Shown here in pieces: positions 48,922 through 63,958 of a stretch of DNA of 64,000 nucleotides (position 1 is its first letter; every line of letters starts with the position of its first letter). The notes below the pieces were generated by a model, which worked only from the letters and a program-made list of their open reading frames with translations, was not told the origin of the DNA and ran no database searches. A program made the position numbers and the translations under genes. Origin of the DNA: Clostridiaceae bacterium (GTDB taxonomy: Bacteria; Bacillota; Clostridia; Clostridiales; Clostridiaceae); the NCBI GenBank assembly GCA_014380625.1, contig JACMJL010000185.1, forward strand, positions 1,896 through 65,895, given 5' to 3'.

Positions 48922-49881
48922 CTACATTGGCAATTCGTTTAAAGTTTTAAATTCAAAACCTTTGCTTGTCCACTCTTTTAATAAATAATCTAAAATATTT
49001 GCATTTGTTTTAGAAACGGCATGTAACAGAAGTATTCCACCGTTATGAGTTCTTTGCATAATTAGATTTTTTGCATAATCCTCACTAGGTTGTTTAGCGG
49101 TATCCCAATCTGCATAGGCAAAACTCCAGAAAACAGACTTATAACCTAACTGTTGAGTGTAATACATTGATAATTCACTATATTTACCCATTGGTGGTCT
49201 AAAGAATTTCTTCATTTTAGTTCCAGTTAGGGTTTCAAAGGTATTTTCACAAGTAATAAGTTCTGCATTAAATTTATCTCTATCCCTAATTCCTGCCATT
49301 GAGGGATGAGTAGTTGAATGATTACAAACAAGGTGTCCTTCAGCTACCATTCTTTTAATTAAATCCTTATTATCATTAATATAAGGTGTAGTTACAAAAA
49401 AGGATGCTTGTACATTATTAGCTTTTAAGATATCCAGCATTTTTGAAGTATATCCATTTTCATAGCCTTCATCAAAGGTAAGATAGTTAATTTTTTTTGT
49501 AGTATCTCCAAGGTAATAACCACTAAACCGTTGAAGGTAATCCCCTACTTCTTTTGGCGGAGCAGGCGAAGTACCATCAGTTTTAGGGCTATAATACCAA
49601 TTTTTTTCTGAGGAACTTAAAGTTAAGGGGTCAGCCGTAGGTTTATCTGAAATCGGAGTACTAGGCTTATTAACTACAACTTCTGGAGTACTTGGTTCTG
49701 GTTTAATGTTATCTTTTGAAGGTTTCGGCGTACTTGGTTCTGGTTTTACATTATTATTTAAAGGTGCTGTAACAGTATGTGAAATAATAGGCTTTTGGAC
49801 AATAGCTTCAGGCTCGTTTCTTCCACAACCTACAAAAACTAATGAAATCAACAGAATTAAACTAATAGTATTTCTTTTCAT
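48922..49881 (-). CDS. pdaA: polysaccharide deacetylase lipoprotein (PdaA-like, delta-lactam-type)
   Basis: Lipobox FVGC. A Pro-rich linker with a duplicated KPEPSTP, then YLTFDEGYENGYT, NHSTTHP, FRPPMGKYS, LLLHAVS, colinear with B. subtilis PdaA as I recall it. Confidence 0.8.
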   Translation of the reverse strand: MKRNTISLILLISLVFVGCGRNEPEAIVQKPIISHTVTAPLNNNVKPEPSTPKPSKDNIKPEPSTPEVVVNKPSTPISDKPTADPLTLSSSEKNWYYSPKTDGTSPAPPKEVGDYLQRFSGYYLGDTTKKINYLTFDEGYENGYTSKMLDILKANNVQASFFVTTPYINDNKDLIKRMVAEGHLVCNHSTTHPSMAGIRDRDKFNAELITCENTFETLTGTKMKKFFRPPMGKYSELSMYYTQQLGYKSVFWSFAYADWDTAKQPSEDYAKNLIMQRTHNGGILLLHAVSKTNANILDYLLKEWTSKGFEFKTLNELPM

Positions 49882-50577: not shown

Positions 50578-51984
50578 ATGGTTATTTTTATTAAAAAGGG
50601 TAAGTTTCTTTTATTCTTACTAGCTATTCTAGTTGTATTTTCTGGTTTTCAACTTAATAGGGTACAAGCTATTTCTCAAACTATATACACTCCTATTGAA
50701 AGTACTAAGGTACTAAATAACCCTTTAATGGGTTGGGCTCCTGATGCAAGATGGATTTTAAAGACACAAAAATATAAGTTAGTTTTTGCATCATTAACTT
50801 GGAGTGACCTTGAAGCACAAAAGGGGATATACAATTTTAGTGCAATTGAAACAAAATTCAATTTTAGTTATTGGCACCAACAGGGTGTTAAAGTCATTAT
50901 TAGAGTAGTTTTGGACAATCCTAGTAGTATAAACCATAAAGATATTCCTAATTGGCTATATAACGAAATAAATGGAGACGGTATTTGGTACAATAATAGC
51001 TACGGTCAAGGCTTCAGTCCAAATTATGAGAATGCTACACTGTTAGCTTATCATCAAAAATTAATTTCTGCACTTGGACAAAAATATAATAATTCTGGTG
51101 ATATTGCTTTTATAGAACTCGGTAGTCTTGGTCACTGGGGTGAATGGCACACAATGCAAGCTACAGGATACACCTTTATACCTTTCCCTAGCGAGGCCAC
51201 TGCTAATAAATATGTTACTCATTATATTAATAGTTTTTCCAATAAAATTAAGTTAATGAGAAGACCTTTTAATATCGCGAAAACTAATAATTTAGGCCTC
51301 TTCAATGATGTTTTTGGAGATATCGTCCAAACTGACAGATATCTTTCATGGATAAACAATGGTTACTATAATAATTATACCAAAGCACAACAGCCTGCAA
51401 TGATAGATTTTTGGAAAAAAGCTCCCTCAGGAGGAGAATTCGCAAACGGAAAAGCTGGTGTTCAATATTTCAGCGATATTAACTTTAGTAATACTCTTAC
51501 TAAAGCTAAGGAAACCCACTTATCTTGGGTTGGTCCAAATTGTCCTGCAAATCAACCACTTAACGGAACAATACAACCTAATATGGATAGTTTTTTAAAT
51601 ACAATTGGATATAAATTTGTTATTTCTCAAGTGTCATATTTGCCTACTATACAGCGTTCGAAGTCTGCTTCCCTTACAATTACTATCAACAACAAAGGAG
51701 TGGCTCCATTTTATTACAAATGGCCTGTAACTCTTTATCTAATGGATTTGAATGGAAATGTAATAAACAAGCAAACTTCAACTGAAGATATTAGAAATTG
51801 GCTTCCAGGTATAAGAACCTTTAGCTCTAATTTATATATACCTTCAAAAACTAAACTAGGCACTTATAAACTGGCAATAAGTATAAATGACCCGTCCGCC
51901 CTAAATCAATCCGTAGACTTCGCAAATGAGGGCAAAACCTCATCCGGCTACTTCTATATCGGTAATATAACTGTAGCAAATTAA
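50578..51984 (+). CDS. secreted glycoside-hydrolase-like protein (clan GH-A TIM barrel; DUF4874/DUF4832-type as I recall)
   Basis: 468 aa with a signal peptide. LTWSDLEAQKGIYNF, GSLGHWGEWH, APSGGEFA. Paralogue of 52030-54012. Confidence 0.7.
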   Translation: MVIFIKKGKFLLFLLAILVVFSGFQLNRVQAISQTIYTPIESTKVLNNPLMGWAPDARWILKTQKYKLVFASLTWSDLEAQKGIYNFSAIETKFNFSYWHQQGVKVIIRVVLDNPSSINHKDIPNWLYNEINGDGIWYNNSYGQGFSPNYENATLLAYHQKLISALGQKYNNSGDIAFIELGSLGHWGEWHTMQATGYTFIPFPSEATANKYVTHYINSFSNKIKLMRRPFNIAKTNNLGLFNDVFGDIVQTDRYLSWINNGYYNNYTKAQQPAMIDFWKKAPSGGEFANGKAGVQYFSDINFSNTLTKAKETHLSWVGPNCPANQPLNGTIQPNMDSFLNTIGYKFVISQVSYLPTIQRSKSASLTITINNKGVAPFYYKWPVTLYLMDLNGNVINKQTSTEDIRNWLPGIRTFSSNLYIPSKTKLGTYKLAISINDPSALNQSVDFANEGKTSSGYFYIGNITVAN

Positions 51985-51987
51985 AAA

Positions 51988-52029
51988 TAGAGACTATATC
52001 AAAATTTAATCATTTTGATATAGTCTCTA
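51988..52029. terminator. bidirectional terminator between the two convergent hydrolase-like genes
   Basis: 18-bp perfect stem TAGAGACTATATCAAAAT/ATTTTGATATAGTCTCTA flanked by A5 and TTATTTT. Confidence 0.85.
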
Positions 52030-54012
52030 TTATTTTACAATTGAGAAATCGTCAATCACTGAACTATACTGGGAGTTTTCCTCTTTAAACTTTACTCTTA
52101 GGCCAATTTGAGAAACACTATTTTCATCTTTACACTTTATATTAAATATATCCTCTTCCTTATTGTTTTCCGTAAGATTAAATATTCTTATCTTATCTTT
52201 ATTCTTTTTAATCATAATATTAGCAGGAAGTTTGATAATACTACTTTCTTTATCACAACTTATTTTTAAAGCATTATTATCAACATAGTTTATATTAATA
52301 ATCTGTTGAATATTTCCATCAGTGTTGTTCTCAATACTATAATTCTTAATATTTGAATTAGGATTTTTTAAACCAAGTTTTATTTCATAACCATCTGAGT
52401 TTAAGAGGTTTCTATAAATAAAACATTGATTTTCAGAACTTTGTTCTTTATTTTTAGGAATCGAATTTATTGTCAGCTTTTCACCGAAATAATCAATATA
52501 ATTGTAATAATTATTATTTTTTAAATCATTACAATTATAGGGATATTGCATAATCACTTCCGTTTCACCAACACTGCAAGTTTTACTTTCTTCACTTCCT
52601 GTATTAGCAAATTCAATTTCAGGTTTCTTTGTTTCAGGATTTAGAAGGTAAACATTCATATTATATATTCCTGCTGATAAACTTTTGTTTAAAGGAATAT
52701 CAAAATCAATATCAGCACTTCCAGGAAGCAGTTTCTTGATATTATAATCAAACTTGAATGTATCCATAATACTTTTATTTATATAATTAATTGATAAATA
52801 TAATGGCCATTCAAAATAGAAGGGTGCTACACCTGAATTTCTAAGGCTTATTTTACCTTTTAATTTATCACCAGGATAATTTTTGTCAAGGTATTGGGAC
52901 TTTGTAACAGTATACCTATATCCCATAAGATTCAAAAGTTTACTAAGATTTCTCTGTTTATCATCCTCAAGCTTAACGTATCCAGGATTGCTCGGTCCTA
53001 ACCAACTTGTATGACTATTCTTAACCATATTAATTGTGCTTTCTATAGATCTATCCTCAAGATATTCATCACCGGGATAGTTGGCAAATTCACCTCCAGA
53101 TGGAGCTTCCGTCCAAAAATCTTTCATACTCGGATTTTGTTGTTCAATGTTTGGGTCCTCATAACCGTTATTTACCCAGTTAAGAAAATAATCATTAGTT
53201 TGAAAATCATCTCCAAAGGAATCATTAAAAAGTCCCATTTTATTATCCTTCGCTATCTGAAAGGGCCTTCTCATAAGTAAAATCTTATTTTTAAAGTAGT
53301 CAAGATATGGTTCTACATACAGATCAGTAATATTTGTCTTTGGAAAGTTGTTATTTCCCCCTAATAAAGAATTGTGCCATTCACCCCACTGACCTATACT
53401 CCCAATCTCTACAAAGGCAATTTCCCCATCCTTATCATACCTTTCTGATAATGCCTTTATTAAATCTAAATGATACTTGATCAAAAGTTTATTATTATAG
53501 TCTGGAGAAAAACCCTTCTGTCCATCTTTGTCATACCAGCTACCCTTACCTTGGATTTCATTATAAACCCATTCTGGGATATCCATATGCTTTACATCTG
53601 AAGGGTAATCGAGATACAACCTGATTACAAACTTGATTCCTTTTTCTTTCCAATGATCATAGCGTATTTTTGTCTCAAAGGCTTGAAAATCAATCCTACC
53701 CTTTTGGGGCTCCATCTCTCTCCAAGAAACCCCCGCATAAACCATAGAAAATGGTTGAGGTATATTTTCAGATGTGCTATCCATAACAAGTCCAATATAT
53801 GGATTTGTTATAACCCTGTCGCTTTCTTGGAAAACATTCACCTTATCTTCCTGTTTTACACGGTTTACTCTATCTTCTTTACTTGATTTAAAGCTAAAAA
53901 ACCCACATCGTAAAATCAATATTACAAGTAGACAAAGAACTACAATTATATTTATTAAAATAAATGATTTCATCTTTCTCTCATCCATGGCGTCATTCCG
54001 CATAATCCCCAT
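52030..54012 (-). CDS. membrane-anchored glycoside-hydrolase-like protein (paralogue of 50578-51984) with ~190-aa N/K-rich C-terminal extension
   Basis: 660 aa. TM anchor FILINIIVVLCLLVILIL, VSWREMEPQKGRIDF, GSIGQWGEWH, APSGGEFA. The start is uncertain (ATGs at 54012, 54003, 53988 and 53973). Overlaps the DUF4956 gene. Confidence 0.7.
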   Translation of the reverse strand: MGIMRNDAMDERKMKSFILINIIVVLCLLVILILRCGFFSFKSSKEDRVNRVKQEDKVNVFQESDRVITNPYIGLVMDSTSENIPQPFSMVYAGVSWREMEPQKGRIDFQAFETKIRYDHWKEKGIKFVIRLYLDYPSDVKHMDIPEWVYNEIQGKGSWYDKDGQKGFSPDYNNKLLIKYHLDLIKALSERYDKDGEIAFVEIGSIGQWGEWHNSLLGGNNNFPKTNITDLYVEPYLDYFKNKILLMRRPFQIAKDNKMGLFNDSFGDDFQTNDYFLNWVNNGYEDPNIEQQNPSMKDFWTEAPSGGEFANYPGDEYLEDRSIESTINMVKNSHTSWLGPSNPGYVKLEDDKQRNLSKLLNLMGYRYTVTKSQYLDKNYPGDKLKGKISLRNSGVAPFYFEWPLYLSINYINKSIMDTFKFDYNIKKLLPGSADIDFDIPLNKSLSAGIYNMNVYLLNPETKKPEIEFANTGSEESKTCSVGETEVIMQYPYNCNDLKNNNYYNYIDYFGEKLTINSIPKNKEQSSENQCFIYRNLLNSDGYEIKLGLKNPNSNIKNYSIENNTDGNIQQIININYVDNNALKISCDKESSIIKLPANIMIKKNKDKIRIFNLTENNKEEDIFNIKCKDENSVSQIGLRVKFKEENSQYSSVIDDFSIVK

Positions 54013-54673
54013 TATAACTTATAAGTGATGCATCCATAACTCCAGGAATTTGAGATATTTCATTTACGAAGCTGGAATTATTACTTTTAACTTTAACCTC
54101 AACAGAAAGTTCAGTAATTCCTTTTGCCACTGTCTTTCCCTTTGTTACATACTTCATTCCTTCAAGAATTATTTTAACATTATCCTTTGCTTCCTCTTCA
54201 AAATGAATAATTAACATATAAGTTCTACTTTTAATCTTATAATTTGTCATTATTAAAATAATCAAACCTACAAAAAGAGACCCGAAAATAGAAACTGAAT
54301 AAACCTTAGCTCCAGACGCTATTCCCACAGTTATTGCCCAAAACATAAACATAATATCCATTGGATCCTTCAGAGCCGTTCTAAATCTTACAATACTAAG
54401 AGCTCCTACCATACCTAAAGACAGGGCCACATTTGAGCTTATTGTTAAAACTATAAGAGATGTCAGCATACACATCATCAATAGGGAAACATTATAAGCG
54501 TAGCTATATACAACCCCTTTAAAGGTATACTTATATATGAAAAATATAAACAACCCTGCTATTAAGGTAAACACTAAACAGATCATTACTTCAGATGTTG
54601 GTATTTTTTGGAACGTATCTAAATTTGAAAAACCCTTTTTTAAAATATCTTGAAAATTCAAACTCTTATCCAT
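53993..54673 (-). CDS. DUF4956-family membrane protein
   Basis: 226 aa with about 4 TM segments. The signature ALSIVRFRTALKDPMDIMFMFWAITVGIASG is what I associate with DUF4956. The C-terminal ~80 aa form a soluble domain. Confidence 0.7.
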   Translation of the reverse strand: MDKSLNFQDILKKGFSNLDTFQKIPTSEVMICLVFTLIAGLFIFFIYKYTFKGVVYSYAYNVSLLMMCMLTSLIVLTISSNVALSLGMVGALSIVRFRTALKDPMDIMFMFWAITVGIASGAKVYSVSIFGSLFVGLIILIMTNYKIKSRTYMLIIHFEEEAKDNVKIILEGMKYVTKGKTVAKGITELSVEVKVKSNNSSFVNEISQIPGVMDASLISYNGDYAE

Positions 54674-54687
54674 TTTATTTCCTCCAT

Positions 54688-55389
54688 TTATATATTATTC
54701 TTTTGTACTCTGCAAAAAACATATTTAGAAATTGCACTCATATCCTTTGCATCCATGCTAATCATTTTTTTTACTATGTCAGGAAGGAACTCATTAAATT
54801 TAACCTCCATTATCATCATTGGCATGGGAAATATGATCTTTGTAGCTATATTAGGATTAAATATATCATTACTTGAAAATGCGACTCTTACATTCTTATC
54901 AAAAGTAATTCTTACATCACTAATATTCCCCACATAGGCCTCCCTATCATAATCAACGATGACCTTAGGTATTAACAATTTATTTTTCATTGTCATAAAC
55001 AAGTCCTTTTTTAATAAGCTATCTGCTGCGTCAAGAAAGGTAAACTTTCCTTGAAGGATGTTCTCGTACTCTTCTCTTGAAATATTAACAGCCTCTTTAT
55101 TTACATACTGACCTACCTTGCTTTTCCGTTCCAATTTTATAGACTTATCGCTCATATTGTATATTCTTATACGATATTTATTTCTTAAATTTACTCCAAA
55201 GTTCTTTTCAAATAAGGCTGAATCATAAATATCATCAAAATAGAGACTCCTAATAAAGTATTCCCCTTGTTCATTAGCATTGGAATCAAGTTTTAATACA
55301 TGCTTTATTCTATTCCGAACGGCTATATAGTCATTATAATTAATATAATATTTTAGCTCATGTCTAAATTTCCTTGCTGTGTGTCCCAT
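54688..55389 (-). CDS. VTC-domain (polyphosphate polymerase-like, CYTH/triphosphate-tunnel) protein
   Basis: 233 aa. RHELKYYI.., FIRSLYFDD, RNKYRIRIY, MEVKF strand pattern typical of bacterial VTC-domain proteins. Confidence 0.7.
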   Translation of the reverse strand: MGHTARKFRHELKYYINYNDYIAVRNRIKHVLKLDSNANEQGEYFIRSLYFDDIYDSALFEKNFGVNLRNKYRIRIYNMSDKSIKLERKSKVGQYVNKEAVNISREEYENILQGKFTFLDAADSLLKKDLFMTMKNKLLIPKVIVDYDREAYVGNISDVRITFDKNVRVAFSSNDIFNPNIATKIIFPMPMMIMEVKFNEFLPDIVKKMISMDAKDMSAISKYVFCRVQKNNI

Positions 55390-55407
55390 CCCATACCTAC
55401 TCTCATA

Positions 55408-57117
55408 TTAATTTATGATAAGTTCTTTTTCTCCATAATAACTTTTTCCGCTAACAATGTGGTAAAGATCAAAGGCAATCTGATGCTTGTTCTTAGAATT
55501 GTAAATATCAACCTTCCAGTAATACTTTCCTTTAGCTAAGTTTTCTACGGTTATAGTCATATCTTTAAGTGAATCCTTATTAAATACAACATTTTTAAAA
55601 TCTGGGTCTGTGCTCAAACTAAAATTATAAAATAAATCATTACCTTTTAAGTCATATGATTCTTCCCATTTAAAAACAGTTTTATTTCCTTGTACTTCAG
55701 GAATGCCTAAAAATATGGGCATAGGTGTATCTATATTCTCATAGAATCTTTTTTTATTTGTTTCAATTACAGAAGGTAATCTCTTAATTTCTTTTTCATA
55801 ATTTTCTAGGGTAGAAGGTATAAAGTTAAGATCGGGCAAGGTCTTAATAATAGAACTTGTTTGACTATAGTATTTTGAAACCAAACTCTTAACTTTTTCC
55901 TCTGACATATACTTTGAGACTTCCTCCAATTCCTGTGTTAAATCCTTAAGGTTATTAGAGTCTGAAATAAACCTTTTATGAAGTTTAACCCCCCAGTAAT
56001 TTGATAGGGGCTGAGTTTGCCAAGGAGCATATAGCTCTTGCTCGTGAGGTTGTGATTCATAGCCAAATGCACCATCATAATCCCAGGGTATAAAGTACCA
56101 TCTTTCTGCAGTAATAGGACTAAATAGCAAGAAATTTTGTGAATTTGTATCCCAATTTCCAGTAAGGATATTTACTGCAAGCCAGGTCAAATAATTTTCT
56201 CGATCAAAGTGTTTTTTGATTACATCATTAATATTCAAACTATAATTATTTACATCATCAAGCATACCTATTAACAATGAATGGTCCTCAATACCTCTGA
56301 TTTTTAGTACCTTTTCAAACTCTATTTTGTTATAGCTTGGATCATCTACATTTTTAATCCTTTCATCATCTCTGTTAAATTCAAAAAACTCTGCTTTATA
56401 TAAATATCCTTGCTGAGCAAGTCCGTGATTTTTTATATAGGTCTCATTTGGTTGTTCTACCTGAGTAAATAGACCATAATCTATAAATTGTTTACTTGAT
56501 CCTGATAAGTCTTTAATATACAGATGAAAAAACTGAGTTCTTAAGCTAAACATGTTTGGAATAGTTTTAAAAAGATCAAAAGCTAACTTATTTCTAATCC
56601 TAGACATATCATAAGGAGATTTACTTAAATTAATAATCTTCTGTCCTTTCCACTTTCCACTCTTTTCGTCTAATGTGACTTTAAAGGATTTCTGAGAAGC
56701 TGAGCTAGATGAGTGACCTTTAGGTTCCAAAACTGCATTTGCTTCAGAACCAGAAATAGATATCGGTAGATTTCCAATATCTACCTGTATATCTAATTTA
56801 GGTTTTTCATTAACTTTATCTTTATCATTTTCACTTAAAAAATATTTGAATTTATAATTATATAAATCCCCCAAGGTTTCTTTATTGTCTTGTAGAACTG
56901 TAATGTACATATTCTTCACAGTATCATCGTCATCAGCATAAATTAATTTATTGTCCTCAACCTTAAAACTATCCGTAACACTTTCTTTATTACTATCTGT
57001 TTTCTCTTTAGTGTCAAGAAGCGGATTGTTACTAACTAAAATACTTATAGCGGTCGAGCCTACTAGAACTCCAGCAATTATAAATATTAATACTTTGTTA
57101 TTTAAATACTTTTTCAA
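55408..57117 (-). CDS. CotH-family kinase-like protein, membrane-anchored/extracytoplasmic
   Basis: 569 aa. TTG start directly after the pelG TGA, with an AAGGAAGGAAA RBS. N-terminal anchor VLIFIIAGVLVGSTAISILV. CotH motifs YLTWLAVNILTGNWDT and YFIPWDYDGAFG. C-terminal Ig/Fn3-like module. Confidence 0.8.
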   Translation of the reverse strand: MKKYLNNKVLIFIIAGVLVGSTAISILVSNNPLLDTKEKTDSNKESVTDSFKVEDNKLIYADDDDTVKNMYITVLQDNKETLGDLYNYKFKYFLSENDKDKVNEKPKLDIQVDIGNLPISISGSEANAVLEPKGHSSSSASQKSFKVTLDEKSGKWKGQKIINLSKSPYDMSRIRNKLAFDLFKTIPNMFSLRTQFFHLYIKDLSGSSKQFIDYGLFTQVEQPNETYIKNHGLAQQGYLYKAEFFEFNRDDERIKNVDDPSYNKIEFEKVLKIRGIEDHSLLIGMLDDVNNYSLNINDVIKKHFDRENYLTWLAVNILTGNWDTNSQNFLLFSPITAERWYFIPWDYDGAFGYESQPHEQELYAPWQTQPLSNYWGVKLHKRFISDSNNLKDLTQELEEVSKYMSEEKVKSLVSKYYSQTSSIIKTLPDLNFIPSTLENYEKEIKRLPSVIETNKKRFYENIDTPMPIFLGIPEVQGNKTVFKWEESYDLKGNDLFYNFSLSTDPDFKNVVFNKDSLKDMTITVENLAKGKYYWKVDIYNSKNKHQIAFDLYHIVSGKSYYGEKELIIN

Positions 57118-58575
57118 TCAGATTTTCCTTCCTTTCAGCAGCATATATTTGTATAACTTCCCGAATCTTCCTTCTTTGTTTTTAATAAATATTGGTTGTG
57201 AAGCAAAGGTGTAATAGTCAATTTCTTCTAGAAAATAACTAAGCTTAAAGTAAGCAAAAACCATAGATATAATAGCTGCAGCAAAAAATCCATATCCATA
57301 AAAACTTTCACCTAAAAATAAACTGATTAATGTAAAAATAAGATTTAAACTAAAAAAAGTAATAGCTATATGCATTGCATTTTTTTTATTATCAAAATAA
57401 AGTAAAATTATTAAGAGAAAATACATAATAATATAACAAAGGCTACCTAATATAAGTATGGAAAAAATATCTGTAGATAGTTGGGATAATCCTACCATCG
57501 GTAACAGCTTTCTTCCAAATGCTATAAAGGTGAAAGAAATAAACAATTGAACTTCAATTAAATATCTTAATTCAATCAATAAAGTTGTAATCATCTCTGA
57601 ACGGGCAATTTCAATATCTTTAACACTACCATTGCTTTGTGTCAAACTGTAATACTCCTTATATCTAGGATAAAAGGAAGTCTCAACCTTCACTACAAAT
57701 ATTACAGTTATTGGTATTATGGATAAAAAAGCATAAAACAAAGCAACATCATAGAAGGGTGCAATTCTAAAAGTATCTTTTATAACCATCCCTTTGTCAC
57801 TGAACCAAAACACAAAGTTATGCACATACATACCCAAATAATAAAGAACACCTGTTACCAAAAGTTCTGGATGTTCATCTATGCTGGTTATTATTTCAAA
57901 GCAATCAGTAACACTAAATCTTGTTCCTCCATAGACCTTATATATCTTTATTGCAAAAAGTATCGCCATAACTAAAAAGCCTATAACAAGGGAGAGTAAT
58001 GCTGAAAAGAAATTATCTATATGAATCCAATATACTAATCCCAAAAATACTGAAAACATAACAGCTATTCCAATAAAGAAACTTATAAATATTGATAGAT
58101 AATCTTTAATTGTGGTAATATAAATGGATTCAATCCATATTATTGAAATTTCTCCAAGAAGAATAATTGAATATATCTTTACAAAGTCGTTTATTCCTGA
58201 TGTTAAGTAAAAGATATTTGCAAGCACAAAATCAATTATAAGAACTATAACAGTGACCCCAAAGAAAGAAGGGAAAATTTTACCCAAAGTCTTTCTATAA
58301 ATACAATCAGAGATATATCTTGCAGCCAATAATACAAACCCTCCAGTTATGATTAAAGAAAAAGCAAAACAATATATCATAATGGATATGAAATACTGAA
58401 TATTTATAAAAGATTCTCCCATGTTTTTTAATAATACCTGCATTCCAATAATTAAAATTATACATAATAAAGTAGGACCTGAAGTTACAACAGATGAAAC
58501 AAAATATGCTTTAAAATTATAAAATAAACCCCGTTCTTTAAAAAGACCTCTCAATTCAAACCCAATACCTGCCAT
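57118..58575 (-). CDS. pelG: Pel exopolysaccharide export/polymerisation membrane protein PelG
   Basis: 485 aa with about 12 TM segments and the characteristic N-terminus MAGIGFELRGLFKE. Confidence 0.8.
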   Translation of the reverse strand: MAGIGFELRGLFKERGLFYNFKAYFVSSVVTSGPTLLCIILIIGMQVLLKNMGESFINIQYFISIMIYCFAFSLIITGGFVLLAARYISDCIYRKTLGKIFPSFFGVTVIVLIIDFVLANIFYLTSGINDFVKIYSIILLGEISIIWIESIYITTIKDYLSIFISFFIGIAVMFSVFLGLVYWIHIDNFFSALLSLVIGFLVMAILFAIKIYKVYGGTRFSVTDCFEIITSIDEHPELLVTGVLYYLGMYVHNFVFWFSDKGMVIKDTFRIAPFYDVALFYAFLSIIPITVIFVVKVETSFYPRYKEYYSLTQSNGSVKDIEIARSEMITTLLIELRYLIEVQLFISFTFIAFGRKLLPMVGLSQLSTDIFSILILGSLCYIIMYFLLIILLYFDNKKNAMHIAITFFSLNLIFTLISLFLGESFYGYGFFAAAIISMVFAYFKLSYFLEEIDYYTFASQPIFIKNKEGRFGKLYKYMLLKGRKI

Positions 58576-59990
58576 TAACCTTCACCCACCACTTCATCAT
58601 AGATTTTCCTATAGCTATTTATAAAGTTATCGATTGTATATAATTTTGATACTCTATTATAGGCACTTTTGCCCATGTCTTCTCTTAATTTTTTATCTTG
58701 GCTGAGCCGAATTATAGCTGCACCAAATGCCTCATAGTCCATTACAGGTACAACAATTCCTGCATCACCGAAATCATCATCTGCTCCATACATCAGTTCT
58801 CTGCAACTACCTACATCAGTTAAAATATGAGGTTTTTTTGTGGCCATGCCCTCCAATACTGCCAAAGGTTGTCCTTCGCTAATACTACCTAGAACTAAAA
58901 CATCCATTTTACCTATATAGTCTCTCACATTTACTTGGCCAGTAAATATTACATTTTTAAGGCCTAAGGATTTAGTAAAAGACTTGCATTCTTCTGTATA
59001 AATTAAGTCTTCATCCACAGGTCCCATAATAAACAACTGTATGTTTTTTATTTTTTCAGAAGCAATTTCAAAGCCTTGAATTATTGTCTTAATATCCTTT
59101 ATAGGTACTACCCTTAAAATTGCACCAATATTAATGATGTTCTCATCTTCCTTAATCACATTAATATCAATATAATCCCTACAATTAATACCATTGGGTA
59201 CTACTGAGATTTTATCTTCTGCACACCCTATCTCTATTTGAACCTTCTTATTACGATCAAATAGTGTAATAACTGAATCTGAAAAGGAATAAGCACACCT
59301 GGATAAATTGTAAAAGTATTTTATCCAGATATCTTTAAAGTGCCCTTTAACCCAATCAGCTTTAATTAACTCTTCTTCCCTCTCTCTGGTATAAATTCCA
59401 TGTTCAGTGAGTACTAATGGTGCACCATATTTATATTTTCCAAAGGCCGCCATTACCCCTGCATATCCCGTAGATACACTATGATATAGATCAGCTTTTG
59501 GTATGCCCTTTTTTATCACCTCAAATAATGCTAAAACCATAGATCTTATGGTCCAAAAAAAATCATTAAAAACTACATAGGGAAAATATTCTTCACATAC
59601 TTCACGTATTATATCAAAAAAATCTTTACTCATTAATAATTCAGAAACAGTAGTATCTCTGTTCTCATCAATAAACCTAAATAAATCCTGCCAGTCAAAA
59701 TATTCTCCTGTTATCAATCCTTTAATTGCGGCTTTTTCAGAAGGTTTTAAGGTATACCTCTTTCTAGGCTCTCCAGTTTCATTAAGGTAGGAATCCAGAA
59801 AAACTTCTTGAATATCTATAATATTATCAGGAAACTTGTATTTAAACTTCCCTTTTGATTCCTCATGTGCGCCTATAGAGTATATAATAAACTCATGTTC
59901 AGGCATTAATCTTATGAGTGTCTGTATCCAGCTTGATACTCCTCCGGTTATATATGGATAGCTGCCTTCTGCTACAATACATATCTTCAT
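58575..59990 (-). CDS. pelF: GT4 glycosyltransferase PelF
   Basis: 471 aa. MKICIVAEGSYPYITGGVSSW (DUF3492-type N-terminus) and a GT4 C-terminus (..SISEGQPLAVLEGMA). Confidence 0.85.
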   Translation of the reverse strand: MKICIVAEGSYPYITGGVSSWIQTLIRLMPEHEFIIYSIGAHEESKGKFKYKFPDNIIDIQEVFLDSYLNETGEPRKRYTLKPSEKAAIKGLITGEYFDWQDLFRFIDENRDTTVSELLMSKDFFDIIREVCEEYFPYVVFNDFFWTIRSMVLALFEVIKKGIPKADLYHSVSTGYAGVMAAFGKYKYGAPLVLTEHGIYTREREEELIKADWVKGHFKDIWIKYFYNLSRCAYSFSDSVITLFDRNKKVQIEIGCAEDKISVVPNGINCRDYIDINVIKEDENIINIGAILRVVPIKDIKTIIQGFEIASEKIKNIQLFIMGPVDEDLIYTEECKSFTKSLGLKNVIFTGQVNVRDYIGKMDVLVLGSISEGQPLAVLEGMATKKPHILTDVGSCRELMYGADDDFGDAGIVVPVMDYEAFGAAIIRLSQDKKLREDMGKSAYNRVSKLYTIDNFINSYRKIYDEVVGEG

Positions 59991-61816
59991 TTCGCACCTT
60001 CCGTTTCTATATTAAATTCAGAATCAATGGCCTTAATTAAATACGCATTATCATCGATTTTTGTAAAAGAACAACCCGTACATTTACTAATTTTTTTGTC
60101 AGTCCTTAAAATAAAATACATTTGATCTCTAAAGTTTTTAGAATATCCTTTAATGTTTTTCTCACTATATTTAAATTCAGTTTCAGTATCTAGATATCTA
60201 CTTAACTCAACTCCGCCCTTTGAAATAGTCATACTTCTTAGCCAATTAAAGTTATTGTGTATATCTTTCATCATTCCATTATAGTCCCTATACATATCTT
60301 CCCAACTGATTCCCAAACTCCTACTTGAATCTAATATATCATCCGGATGGAGGAAATGTGAAAAGGTTCCATATGCTGTTATTCCATTATATATTGACCA
60401 TTTTTTTTCTGAAGTGTACTTATATCCAGAAGATATACGAGGTAACTGTAAAAACCCATCATCACTTTTTTCAAATTCTTGTACATATTCATCTCCACTT
60501 AAGCCTCCCTGAAAGACAGAGGAAATTATCTTTAAGTCCGGCATAGAATTATGAAGTGCTTCTATACCTTCATCACTGATAACATTGGAGGGAGGTACAT
60601 AACTTGTTATATTATAATTAGGAAAAACAGTATGAAAATAATTGTTTACTTCTTTTAAAGACGCCTCCATATTATTAATATTAGGCCAGCTATTATATCC
60701 TAAGTCCACTTTCATAAATCCTTTGAAAACGAGAGATTGATGATTATAACCGTGTATCCCTATTTCCCCACCACTTTTAATTATTTCGTGACCAACTCTC
60801 AATAGCGTATTCCTGGTTTCTTGATCTCTTACTATATCAAAATTTGGAGAAACCCTGTTGTTATAAACTTCAATATAGAAGGTTGAATATTTTGTATCAT
60901 ACTGTTTTGAGCTTTTAAGCATGTCCGGCCACCATATATCAGAAAAAAAACTAGATGCATCCTTGCCATAATCCTTAAAAATACGCTCATTATAACCTAT
61001 TGGAATAGGTGCAGGAAAGTCATCAATAAAACTTAGTTTCATATTCATTACAGGGTAGATAAATCCAGTTTCAATCTGACCTAAAATACCAGCAAAAAGT
61101 CCTCTATTCTCCTTTTCCACAAAAAATTGCCCGTTGGAAAATATAACCTTACCTGTCCCAATTTTCTTTTCCCAAATGAGGGGTCTATTGTCACTTGAAA
61201 CACTGTATACCTTACAATCATTATCAAGCTGTACAGCTATAGAGGATATTACTGCAGTACTATCTTCTGCACCTTTCCCTTTTAAAAGGACATTAGTCAA
61301 CATTTTCATACCCTTAACTTCATCAATGGTGCCTCTTTCATAAATTCCAAGCTTTCTATATATACTAGAGAAGTTACCGCTTTGTATTGGCCTTTCTGCG
61401 ATAATTACACTACCACCCTTCTCTACATATTTAAAAAGATTATCAAAGTAATCAAAATTCTCAAAATTCTCAAAATCAAGTATTACGCAACTATAACCTT
61501 CAAAAGTAGCACTAGTATCTTTAACATCTTCATAGGTTACGTGCTTTTTCATTCCAGAAAATAGCTTTTCTAAATTTTCCTTAATCTTGATACTGGCTTC
61601 TTCTGAAGAATTAAAAACAAAAAGATACTTTTCATTTCCTTCATTTTTGATTGTATCAAATAGTTTTGAAGTTTTAACTGGAACATTTACATAATCTTTA
61701 TAAACATCCTTATTACCTACATTATTTAGAACAAAATTAGCTCTGATTACGAATAATAATGCAGATAATAATACTAATAAAACAATAAAACCACTGAAAA
61801 ATCTCTTATTAAGCAT
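59987..61816 (-). CDS. DUF2194-domain protein (PelA deacetylase-type component of Gram-positive pel loci)
   Basis: About 609 aa with a signal anchor. The ATG at 61816 shares one base with the pelE TAA (TAATG), after a GAGGGGGA RBS. Its position between pelE and pelF matches the Gram-positive pel order. Confidence 0.7.
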   Translation of the reverse strand: MLNKRFFSGFIVLLVLLSALLFVIRANFVLNNVGNKDVYKDYVNVPVKTSKLFDTIKNEGNEKYLFVFNSSEEASIKIKENLEKLFSGMKKHVTYEDVKDTSATFEGYSCVILDFENFENFDYFDNLFKYVEKGGSVIIAERPIQSGNFSSIYRKLGIYERGTIDEVKGMKMLTNVLLKGKGAEDSTAVISSIAVQLDNDCKVYSVSSDNRPLIWEKKIGTGKVIFSNGQFFVEKENRGLFAGILGQIETGFIYPVMNMKLSFIDDFPAPIPIGYNERIFKDYGKDASSFFSDIWWPDMLKSSKQYDTKYSTFYIEVYNNRVSPNFDIVRDQETRNTLLRVGHEIIKSGGEIGIHGYNHQSLVFKGFMKVDLGYNSWPNINNMEASLKEVNNYFHTVFPNYNITSYVPPSNVISDEGIEALHNSMPDLKIISSVFQGGLSGDEYVQEFEKSDDGFLQLPRISSGYKYTSEKKWSIYNGITAYGTFSHFLHPDDILDSSRSLGISWEDMYRDYNGMMKDIHNNFNWLRSMTISKGGVELSRYLDTETEFKYSEKNIKGYSKNFRDQMYFILRTDKKISKCTGCSFTKIDDNAYLIKAIDSEFNIETEGAK

Positions 61817-62706
61817 TATTCTTCCCCCTCTAACCAAAACCTAAGTATTTTTATTCCGTTACTACTAAGCTTAACCTGAGAACTTCTAAGTTTTAACATA
61901 ATTCTATTAAACTGATTAACATTTTTATTTATATACCCTATTTGAAGCAACAATAGATATGGAGTTTCACTGTTTATAAATATCTCCATATAATTTTCAC
62001 AATATGAAATCGCCTCATTAAACTTTCTTAGTGTAATATCACATTTTATAATCTCTTCAAAATAAAATTCGTTAGTCTTGTCCATACTTAGGATTCTAAT
62101 TAAAATCTCTCTATATTTATACTGATTCTTTATATAGGCTTTTTTATCTAAAAGGCCACTTTCATTATACTTTTTTAATATTCCTACATAAGTTGTGAGA
62201 ACTTCCATATTAGAGTCATCCTGTTGATATTTCACCTCAAACTCTTGGAGTGCCATTGTAAGCTTTCTTTTTACTTCTGTAACTGCCGTGGCTGCATAAT
62301 GAGAGGTTTCTGTATCCTTATCTTTAAGTGCCTTTTTTAAGAAACCCAAATATTGATATGAATCGCCTTTTATAGCATTAATTATTAGTCTTCTCTTAAC
62401 ACTTTCATCATTTAATACAAGGGCTTCTTCAATAGGAATAATATCCATCGCATTTTTCAGGTCTCCACTTCTACGAATCAAACTTTCTTGTTTAAAATCA
62501 TTGTCAAACCAAAGTTTAAAATGCTTATTATCAAATTCTACTATATACTTTTCACATACTACCATTACAATATAAAAAATCACTCCACAAAAGGGGAGGA
62601 AAATCATTATTAAAAAGCCAATGATTGCATCTTTCTTTCGAACTTTTTTTTCATATAAATATATTACTATGCTTATAATGAAATTCACCAAATAAAACTT
62701 ATACAT
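61816..62706 (-). CDS. pelE: PelE-like protein (2 TM + TPR-like helical domain)
   Basis: 296 aa with two N-terminal TM helices, then a helical-repeat region. 8-nt overlap with the pelD-like gene. The assignment rests mainly on position and architecture. Confidence 0.6.
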   Translation of the reverse strand: MYKFYLVNFIISIVIYLYEKKVRKKDAIIGFLIMIFLPFCGVIFYIVMVVCEKYIVEFDNKHFKLWFDNDFKQESLIRRSGDLKNAMDIIPIEEALVLNDESVKRRLIINAIKGDSYQYLGFLKKALKDKDTETSHYAATAVTEVKRKLTMALQEFEVKYQQDDSNMEVLTTYVGILKKYNESGLLDKKAYIKNQYKYREILIRILSMDKTNEFYFEEIIKCDITLRKFNEAISYCENYMEIFINSETPYLLLLQIGYINKNVNQFNRIMLKLRSSQVKLSSNGIKILRFWLEGEE

Positions 62707-63958
62707 ATAAAACTTCCTCTATTATCTGACTGAATTCCACGCCTTGATCTTTCAATCTATTTGATACTATTAAAGCATCTGAATTTGATGCATTTGATAA
62801 AATCAAATAAATATTATCATCAGTCCATATACCTGCAAAATCAGCTTCTCTAATACATCTCATTACTACTTCCGATAATGATTTATAATCTCTATTTGAA
62901 TTTTCTATTTTAAGCATAGCGAATTCGGATTTACTTTCCTTCATAGACTTTGTTTTTATGCTAAGGATATTTTCAAAAAACTCCTTCTTTAAAAATATAG
63001 TATCCTGCACATATCTTTCATCATTTATTGCACTCTCATATAAATAAGCGTTTAATACAGCTGTGTTTATAAGTCTAGAAACAACAACAAACAGGTTTTG
63101 AAAATATAAAGTAAGTCTATCAAACTCAACACCATGTAACATAATTAGCGCAATTGTTTTCTTGTTGGTATCAACTATTGGTGCTATCAGCATAGGTAAT
63201 TCTGGATTTAATTTTTTATTTATAAAAATATTACCTTGAAGAAGCTGTTCTTTTGCTTCCATAAAGTAATCAAGCTCAATAGTTTTTTTAGCAATTAGGC
63301 TTTCTTTATTGGATTTTACTATTAACCTCAAAAACTTAGCACTTTTGTCAATAGAATAAATTGATATTTCATCTGTGTTTAAAATTCTTTCTAGTACATC
63401 AATTGCCCCTTTGTATATAAATTGTGGCTCTAAGCTATCAAGTTCTTTAATTATTCCGTAAATCTTTCCAAAACTGTCCTCTGAATTTACAACTTGGTTC
63501 TCTAATAAGGATTTTGAGATATAGGTCTCATTATATACTTCCTGTAAAAAATTATATTTTTCTTCTATTGCTGAAATAAAAACCTTATTAGAATCTCCTT
63601 GCCTTGAATATTTATCTATCATATAGCCAACGATTAATCCTACAAGTAAATAGATACTAATTTTAAGTACAAAGCTTGTATCTAACATCATTGAAAATGA
63701 ATCCATACCCGTTGAAAAACTTTCATAGGTAAAAAGACAAACGGAAAGTATTACCGCTATAATAGATTGATTAGTTCCATAAACTAATCCCATAATTACA
63801 ATATATACAAGCTTTAAATCAACTGTATTTAATGAAAAATCCATTTTAAAAAGTTTAGTTAAAGAAAATATCACTAAAAATAATATTACATTTTCAATGT
63901 ACGGAAGAACCTTCTTAAGATGCTTCCAATCCTTTTTACTATCTTTCTTTTTAATCAT
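62699..63958 (-). CDS. pelD: PelD-like c-di-GMP receptor (4 TM + GAF + degenerate GGDEF)
   Basis: At least 419 aa. N-terminal TM bundle and a GAF-like middle. The C-terminus carries RxxD (READ, residues 370-373), followed 5 residues later by TDDNI where GG[DE]EF would be. The reading frame stays open from 63959 to the window end, so the 5' end is unresolved. Confidence 0.7.
   Translation of the reverse strand: MIKKKDSKKDWKHLKKVLPYIENVILFLVIFSLTKLFKMDFSLNTVDLKLVYIVIMGLVYGTNQSIIAVILSVCLFTYESFSTGMDSFSMMLDTSFVLKISIYLLVGLIVGYMIDKYSRQGDSNKVFISAIEEKYNFLQEVYNETYISKSLLENQVVNSEDSFGKIYGIIKELDSLEPQFIYKGAIDVLERILNTDEISIYSIDKSAKFLRLIVKSNKESLIAKKTIELDYFMEAKEQLLQGNIFINKKLNPELPMLIAPIVDTNKKTIALIMLHGVEFDRLTLYFQNLFVVVSRLINTAVLNAYLYESAINDERYVQDTIFLKKEFFENILSIKTKSMKESKSEFAMLKIENSNRDYKSLSEVVMRCIREADFAGIWTDDNIYLILSNASNSDALIVSNRLKDQGVEFSQIIEEVLYV

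Follow-up and report, generated by a model that had tools for sequence, protein, structure and literature searches.

A 64,000-nucleotide (nt) window of a Clostridiaceae bacterium (GenBank assembly GCA_014380625.1, contig JACMJL010000185.1, positions 1,896 to 65,895 of the forward strand; "the window" refers to this whole stretch) contained three adjacent genes for a CotH-family kinase, a stand-alone VTC-domain protein and a DUF4956 membrane protein. The strongest conclusion drawn from their analysis was that a predicted Vtc4-type enzyme with a polymerase-like active site forms a unit with an MgtC-like membrane protein, and that this unit is usually coupled to a surface CotH that is apparently active. 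An earlier note on this DNA had placed the three genes at 53993-57117, and they were recovered as open reading frames (ORFs) with exactly these ends on the minus strand, as follows.

55408-57117, minus strand: CotH-family kinase, 569 amino acids (aa); Pfam CotH, E-value 9e-60
54688-55389, minus strand: stand-alone VTC-domain protein, 233 aa; Pfam VTC, E-value 2e-36
53993-54673, minus strand: DUF4956 membrane protein, 226 aa; Pfam DUF4956, E-value 2.5e-11

The Pfam scores of the three proteins (203, 126.3 and 44 bits for CotH, VTC and DUF4956, respectively) were above the cut-offs of 23.8, 23 and 30.6 bits. The reading placed first, with a probability of about 0.4, is that VTC and DUF4956 would constitute a synthase-exporter of polyphosphate (polyP), and that the surface CotH would work with its polymer. 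The earlier note had proposed that VTC and DUF4956 make and export polyP that feeds an extracytoplasmic CotH kinase; taken as a whole this interpretation was partly supported, and its synteny premise turned out to be stronger than the note knew.

Synteny of the three genes across genomes and metagenomes

A genome scan with the VTC profile returned 80 loci. DUF4956 was the immediate same-strand neighbour of VTC in 78 of the 78 loci where a flank exists, and in the remaining 2 of the 80 the contig ended within 250 nt of VTC. The order was VTC then DUF4956 in 63 loci and the reverse in 15, with a median gap of 15 nt. The reciprocal metagenome scan with the DUF4956 profile gave 48 loci with room on both sides; VTC adjoined DUF4956 in 46 of these, and one further locus had VTC 650 nt away. 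Because the two genes are adjacent in both search directions the pair is regarded as a unit, with strong support for a functional tie between its members. Both families are large, with more than 6,000 VTC and at least 8,000 DUF4956 protein clusters at 90% identity.

Adjacency of CotH was counted at the 54 genome loci that extend for 3.5 kb or more to both sides. CotH was adjacent to the pair in 47 of these informative loci, 16 in pel operons and 31 outside them, and in 16 of 20 informative metagenome loci, 6 with PelF or PelG on the locus and 10 without. CotH is thus usually, not always, the third member of the VTC-DUF4956 unit (about 80-87% of loci). According to a study of Streptococcus intermedius, synteny of the three genes was absent outside pel (PMC12345266); the genome and metagenome scans contradict this restriction. 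The neighbours of pairs lacking CotH included a GH130 protein, a pilin-like protein, a GH3 protein and a P-type ATPase.

A set resembling the triad also appears in the gene table of Clostridium perfringens NELoc-2, which lists VTC-domain genes and, after them, cytoplasmic-membrane proteins of about 222-226 aa and a CotH gene (Lepp 2010, PMC2879425). That set lies by a GT2 "chitin synthase" and not by pel genes; its membrane proteins are annotated "tubulin/FtsZ" and would be the counterparts of DUF4956.

Other contexts of the pair were observed. A first phmmer pass left 59 loci with neither a PelF nor a CotH match; in 8 of them (L044 157-2154 and seven others) the pair adjoined a histidine kinase and an OmpR-type response regulator, which may reflect dedicated regulation. 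In 44 of the 59 (for example L029 60-2738), non-pel loci encoded a CotH of about 900-1100 aa with a larger architecture, in which two lamin-tail domains and a chitobiase/Fn3-associated domain precede the kinase domain. In two loci (L008 12452-14230 and L024 11463-13241) a PelF-like DUF3492/GT4 glycosyltransferase of 593 aa came after CotH-VTC-DUF4956; other pel genes were not upstream, and the triad there has a different polysaccharide context. In Bacteroides thetaiotaomicron a DUF2490 gene adjoins DUF4956 and may stand for an outer-membrane component in Gram-negative versions.

Predicted properties of the VTC, DUF4956 and CotH proteins

The VTC protein matched Pfam PF09359 over profile positions 1-228 of 235 and appeared as a single domain. 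Hydropathy analysis found zero hydrophobic segments in its 233 aa, in agreement with the earlier note, which had seen no transmembrane (TM) segment. The AlphaFold2 (AF2) model had a predicted local distance difference test score (pLDDT) of 88 and a predicted TM-score (pTM) of 0.85, with eight main strands and a C-terminal helix at 222-232. A Foldseek search of this model against the PDB returned VTC subunits as its best 12 matches, Vtc4 leading, then Vtc3 and Vtc2. The Vtc4 crystal and cryo-electron microscopy structures gave E-values of 4e-13 to 1e-11 and TM-scores of 0.72-0.75, while hydrolytic and other tunnel enzymes gave 2e-7 or worse.

Neither the single VTC sequence nor a 35-sequence profile reached Vtc4 in the PDB by HMMER at E-values up to 10. 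The exact sequence of Vtc4 188-481 was therefore recovered from the PDB via a probe sequence and aligned by hhalign and MAFFT. In hhalign, residues 8-210 of the window VTC aligned with Vtc4 195-445 (E-value 3e-5). Synthesis of polyP by Vtc4 needs K200, R264, R266, K281, Y359, R361, S457 and K458, its Mn ligand is E426, and K458 is Ile or Leu in the inactive Vtc2 and Vtc3 (bioRxiv 10.1101/2023.01.27.525886). Both alignments paired VTC K13, R73, R75, K89, Y147 and R149 with Vtc4 K200, R264, R266, K281, Y359 and R361, respectively, and VTC E195 with E426. These triphosphate- and Mn-binding residues were invariant in 35 bacterial VTC homologues, Y147 alone standing at 97%, so that the basic tunnel residues on which the idea of the earlier note depended are present. 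R9, R160 and K197 correspond to the Vtc4 exit-path residues R196, R373 and K428 and are also invariant in the bacterial family.

The last two residues of the Vtc4 set were less readily placed. A serine-lysine pair, S221-K222, is invariant in the VTC family and lies in the C-terminal helix; the pair is important, K458 being the only residue to differ in the catalytically dead Vtc2 and Vtc3. The hhalign region ends short of Vtc4 S457-K458, S221-K222 pairs with it in a weak local alignment alone (score 19), the same pairing was obtained in 1 of 35 local alignments of homologues, and MAFFT offset the motif by 3 residues.

The bacterial VTC could instead be another tunnel enzyme, a tri- or polyphosphatase or a nucleotide-processing enzyme, held at the membrane with DUF4956. 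The tunnel superfamily is catalytically diverse, structural similarity failed to predict polymerase activity of AtTTM3, and hydrolytic members use four glutamates to bind a second, water-activating metal (PMC4641920). E11, invariant in the bacterial VTC family, occupies the position that is E4 in AtTTM3 (the second Glu of the ExExK motif of hydrolases) and Thr198 in Vtc4, and the VTC sequence profile does not reach Vtc4 by hmmsearch. At two of the four acidic-patch positions, three of which could be mapped, however, the window VTC has R9 and K197, basic like Vtc4 R196 and K428, whereas AtTTM3 has E2 and E171. The Lys of the polymerase-specific S-K pair is invariant (with the S-K pairing made by the weak local alignment), the Pfam VTC score is 126 bits and Vtc4 structures outrank all hydrolases. 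Such a non-polymerase function was judged the least probable of the alternatives considered. On balance the aligned residues suggest an active site that looks like that of a polymerase, with one unexplained difference (E11), and the protein is predicted from sequence and model to be a cytoplasmic Vtc4-type tunnel enzyme and putative polyP polymerase.

The yeast VTC complex shares with the window pair the tunnel fold, the triphosphate- and Mn-binding residues, a predicted cytoplasmic catalytic domain and an obligate membrane-protein neighbour. The yeast complex has an SPX domain, a fused TM region and a Vtc1-type subunit, whereas the window VTC has none of these and Pfam found no DUF202 in the operon. 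The partner in the window is unrelated and MgtC-like, with five helices and an ACT-like domain, and the window VTC retains E11 in place of yeast Thr198. The yeast complex is a channel-coupled polymerase, while the bacterial pair is known here from sequences and models alone.

A subset of VTC homologues (P0044, P0067, P0069, P0072, P0077, P0102 and P0118; loci L003, L006 and L019) carried an N-terminal extension of 110-170 aa that was Lys/Arg-rich and disordered-looking, with no domain detected in it. Its binding partner could be a polyanion or the membrane. The long homologues of VTC (340-408 aa) were considered as VTC-DUF4956 fusions and rejected, their N-termini being of this Lys/Arg-rich disordered kind and not TM domains; no VTC-DUF4956 fusion protein was seen in 160 loci.

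The AF2 model of the DUF4956 protein (pLDDT 74) showed a short amphipathic helix and then five long helices (26-50, 58-77, 80-100, 104-121 and 125-144), followed by a beta-alpha-beta-beta-alpha-beta domain at residues 150-219 that is ACT-like. Hydropathy agreed on five helices. The soluble C-terminal domain described in the earlier note was thus upheld, while its count of about four TM segments is replaced by five. The best Foldseek match of the model was 2lqj, the C-terminal domain of Mycobacterium tuberculosis MgtC (E-value 5e-4), followed by ACT domains. Weak Pfam MgtC matches were obtained in 28 of 38 DUF4956 homologues (best E-value 7e-4), the NCBIfam MgtC/SapB model gave 18 bits against a cut-off of 214, below the family threshold, and the JGI name for the family is YhiD. 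These matches point to a distant relative within the MgtC/YhiD superfamily and not to a member of the MgtC/SapB/YhiD family. Like Salmonella MgtC and its family, DUF4956 has a polytopic N-terminal domain and, at the C-terminal end, an ACT-like domain; it differs in being a separate Pfam family with its own invariant motif and in always being paired with VTC, which MgtC is not.

The invariant motif of DUF4956 is S85-LGMVGALSIVRFRTAxKDPxD-106. The distribution of Lys and Arg in 38 DUF4956 sequences assigned a cytoplasmic location to loops 1 and 3 and to the C-terminal domain, and in this predicted topology the invariant R96, R98 and K102 (RxRxxxK) lie at the cytoplasmic mouth between helices 3 and 4. 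The site is compatible with docking or entry of a polyanion and is equally expected from the positive-inside rule.

The CotH protein had one hydrophobic segment, at about residues 5-31 after MKKYLNNK, and no other by hydropathy. The N-terminal anchor reported in the earlier note was therefore found again, given the TTG start at 57117, on whose use its presence depends. The NCBI model of the same protein is 500 aa, starts at Met70 and has the anchor removed (start region 56910-57117). The TTG start is supported by a GGAAGG Shine-Dalgarno sequence 9 nt upstream, by an independent gene call of 569 aa, and by homologues of 555-580 aa that align through the N-terminus and have a signal-anchor or lipobox (LMISGC, SLTGC). 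Among complete CotH ORFs adjoining VTC-DUF4956 pairs, 60 of 62 had an N-terminal hydrophobic segment, and about a dozen CotH ORFs beside pairs had clear lipoboxes. That the CotH domain is extracytoplasmic, as the earlier note had predicted, is a well-supported prediction.

The CotH domain spans residues 131-456, a C-terminal beta-rich domain lies beyond it, and the PWDYDGAFG motif quoted in the earlier note is at residues 344-352. In phmmer the protein matched Bacillus cereus CotH (5jd9) at 6e-13 with the NWD, N and DYD motifs aligned, from which D323, N328 and D346 are the predicted catalytic residues. Mutation of B. subtilis CotH at D228 or D251 inactivates the enzyme, and the spacing of these residues equals that of D323 and D346 (23 residues). 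In CotH proteins adjoining pairs, D323 was conserved in 62 of 68, N328 in 66 of 67 and D346 in 66 of 68. The window protein apparently carries a kinase domain that looks active and is kept on the outer side of the membrane by a signal-anchor. It shares with Bacillus CotH (5jd9/5jda) the domain and the conserved catalytic and metal-binding aspartates. Bacillus CotH belongs to the mother-cell cytoplasm and spore coat and has CotB/CotG-type substrates, whereas the window CotH is predicted to lie outside the cell with a signal-anchor (a lipobox in homologues), carries the additional C-terminal beta domain and is encoded in a polysaccharide operon.

The pel operon and the link to Pel

The three genes stand within a series of nine minus-strand ORFs arranged head to tail from 63958 to 52030, in the order pelD-E-A(DA)-F-G, then cotH, VTC, DUF4956 and DUF4832. 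The features other than the three genes are given below.

62699-63958, minus strand: pelD-like, 419 aa; weak DUF4118 match; assigned by position and same-order homologues
61816-62706, minus strand: pelE-like, without a family match; assigned by position and same-order homologues
59987-61837, minus strand: PelA deacetylase-type (DUF2194); Pfam DUF2194, 3e-147
58575-59990, minus strand: pelF, GT4 glycosyltransferase; NCBIfam PelF, 1e-113; Pfam DUF3492 and Glycos_transf_1
57118-58575, minus strand: pelG; Pfam PelG, 3e-129
52030-54012, minus strand: DUF4874/DUF4832 protein, 660 aa, last operon gene; DUF4832, 1e-22; DUF4874 below cut-off
51986-52031, minus strand: intrinsic-terminator-like hairpin, a 20-bp stem and then a T run

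Genes inside the operon were separated by gaps of 0-18 nt or overlapped. The DUF4832 gene overlapped the DUF4956 gene by 20 nt, and the TGA stop of pelG directly abutted the TTG start of cotH. The hairpin past the DUF4832 gene was the sole strong terminator of the operon. Because of the family matches, the tight spacing and the position of this terminator after the last gene, the three genes are taken as real and, by prediction, as the co-transcribed 3' tail of a Gram-positive pel operon. Promoter-like sites occurred at chance level. The pelD-like and pelE-like genes had phmmer matches to same-order genes in 17 pel loci. The pelD-like start lies 42 nt from the window end, and homologues elsewhere are about 730 aa versus 419 aa here; the epimerase-like N-terminal domain that has been described from such operons is either absent, separately encoded or past the window end.

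The DUF4832/DUF4874 protein had an N-terminal TM segment by hydropathy and is predicted to be an extracellular glycoside hydrolase; glycoside hydrolase activity is established for SIR_1591, its homologue in S. intermedius (PMC12345266). At 50578-51984 on the plus strand lies another DUF4832/DUF4874 protein, a paralogue of 468 aa, convergent on the end of the pel operon, giving two copies of a putative Pel-type hydrolase at the locus, one per strand. Just past the operon, at 48922-49881 on the minus strand, was a polysaccharide deacetylase gene (Polysacc_deac_1, 1e-31), with a ZnuA-type binding protein and an amino-acid ABC transporter as neighbours.

Clusters of this type have been published. 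For streptococci and clostridia, Whitfield and others in 2020 described pelDEADAFG as directly adjoined by cotH, a poly-phosphate polymerase, DUF4956 and DUF4832, and suggested that CotH might regulate Pel through protein phosphorylation (PMC7112168). For SIR_1594-1591 of S. intermedius, a secreted CotH, a cytoplasmic Vtc4-like tunnel protein with its catalytic residues present, a TM protein that resembles MgtC and bears an ACT domain, and a hydrolase at the surface were predicted (PMC12345266; bioRxiv 2024, mBio 2025). The window shares with the published pel clusters the same genes, the same order after pelG and the same domain predictions, and comes from a different organism, a low-GC (guanine-plus-cytosine) Clostridiaceae metagenome-assembled genome.

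PelG and CotH were encoded as a single ORF of about 1040-1090 aa in five Paenibacillus/Bacillota loci (L016 6859-9996; L041 6879-9995; L036 6700-9978; also L020 and L030), and Pfam confirmed three of them. The linker of these fusions keeps a Lys/Arg-rich stretch, a hydrophobic stretch and a lipobox-like segment; therefore the kinase domain would sit outside the cell, tethered to the Pel exporter. As read from these ORFs, the fusions link CotH with the exporter in loci that have pel. The earlier note had named the Pel-like polysaccharide as a possible substrate of CotH. As a Pel-specific role this part was weakened, because most triads lie outside pel loci.

The same evidence bears on the idea that exported polyP is a matrix or surface polyanion, cross-linking cationic Pel or binding wall cations, and not a donor, with CotH binding, anchoring or modifying something else. 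Pel binds polyanions such as extracellular DNA, the PelA-type deacetylase of the operon would make Pel cationic, and the synteny and active-site evidence applies equally here and to the synthase-exporter. With 31 of the 47 informative genome triads not beside pel genes, the function of the triad cannot be Pel-specific, and the idea gives no role to CotH, the most conserved third partner, with its conserved catalytic residues. It was considered improbable, and slightly less so than the non-polymerase function described above.

Proposed mechanism and significance

In the synthase-exporter reading, VTC would polymerise phosphate from ATP while docked on DUF4956. DUF4956 would anchor and gate VTC and pass the polymer outside, and its ACT-like domain may sense a ligand. 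Together with the exported polymer, the surface CotH would then act on a substrate of the surface or matrix, and for pel loci the site of this step would be the exit of Pel from PelG. CotH would be held outside by the signal-anchor here and by a lipid anchor or the PelG fusion in relatives. This reading was ranked first because a cytoplasmic, a polytopic and an extracytoplasmic protein that occur together in widely differing contexts are most simply accounted for by a membrane-crossing process. Four steps are ones that we infer: synthesis of polyP, binding of VTC to DUF4956, passage of polyP across the membrane and its use by CotH.

Several points weigh against the synthase-exporter. The TM part of DUF4956, modelled at moderate confidence (pLDDT 74), gave no channel, transporter or Vtc1-like structural match in the PDB fold search; the protein is unrelated to the Vtc1/DUF202 channel and its detectable relatives are MgtC-type regulators, not pores. 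To these are added E11 and the weak pairing of S221-K222 in the VTC protein. CotH is not adjacent in 13-20% of pairs, and no consistent substitute neighbour was found in the loci lacking it. The use of polyP as a donor by CotH is conjectural. In S. intermedius, Pel rose and aggregation in sputum medium fell when the DUF4956 homologue was deleted, both Pel and aggregation fell when the CotH homologue was deleted, and deletion of VTC (SIR_1593) or the hydrolase gave no phenotype (PMC12345266). The DUF4956 and CotH deletions thus moved the Pel level in opposite directions, unlike the prediction of a linear pathway, and a strict order of VTC, DUF4956 and CotH is disfavoured because the VTC deletion was without phenotype.

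These results also bear on a different arrangement, in which polyP stays in the cytoplasm, DUF4956 is an MgtC-like anchor or sensor that switches VTC, its ACT domain playing the role of yeast SPX, and CotH is a surface kinase in its own right, with ATP or some other donor, that has only regulation or physiology in common with the pair. The resemblance of DUF4956 to MgtC and ACT domains argues for it, as does the behaviour of MgtC relatives, which act by binding other membrane proteins in work cited in PMC12345266. The S. intermedius authors held that polyP may remain cytoplasmic, other VTC subunits being missing (PMC12345266). The pairs without an adjacent CotH and the VTC deletion without a Pel or aggregation phenotype also fit. 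The arrangement leaves unexplained the CotH neighbour in about 80-87% of loci, across architectures and with or without pel, and the dedicated polytopic partner of a soluble enzyme in 78 of 78 loci. It was held to be less likely than not, and yet came close behind the synthase-exporter on account of the descent of DUF4956 from MgtC-type proteins and the lack of a phenotype on VTC deletion.

In bacteria, PPK1 and PPK2 are the enzymes credited with making polyP. A more specific claim, that VTC and DUF4956 are a third bacterial route to polyP and that the exported polymer is the phosphoryl donor or an obligate cofactor for the surface CotH, was judged distinctly less likely than the cytoplasmic arrangement and only a little ahead of the polyanion idea. 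The pair would then be a functional analogue of the yeast VTC complex with an unrelated membrane partner, and in pel loci the target of CotH would be Pel, or a protein of the matrix, on its way out of PelG. The literature searched contained no paper that proposed a conduit role in polyP passage for DUF4956 or a donor role with CotH for polyP, and DUF4956 is otherwise present there in gene-list entries only.

The locus belongs to an already published cluster type and is ordinary for it, while the hypothesis that polyP export feeds CotH is new relative to the literature searched; what makes the locus valuable is this hypothesis together with the comparative data. By occurring outside pel, the triad corrects a statement in print and broadens the question past a biofilm polysaccharide, and the PelG-CotH fusions point to modification at the Pel exporter. 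If true, bacteria would have a further way of making polyP, and possibly of exporting it, in a widespread enzyme of the Vtc4 type with an apparently intact active site and a membrane partner of its own. A CotH fed by polyP would, if true, solve how a kinase functions outside the cell where ATP is scarce, and the surface kinase tied genetically to the VTC-DUF4956 pair would offer a testable answer to how extracytoplasmic phosphorylation is powered in bacteria.

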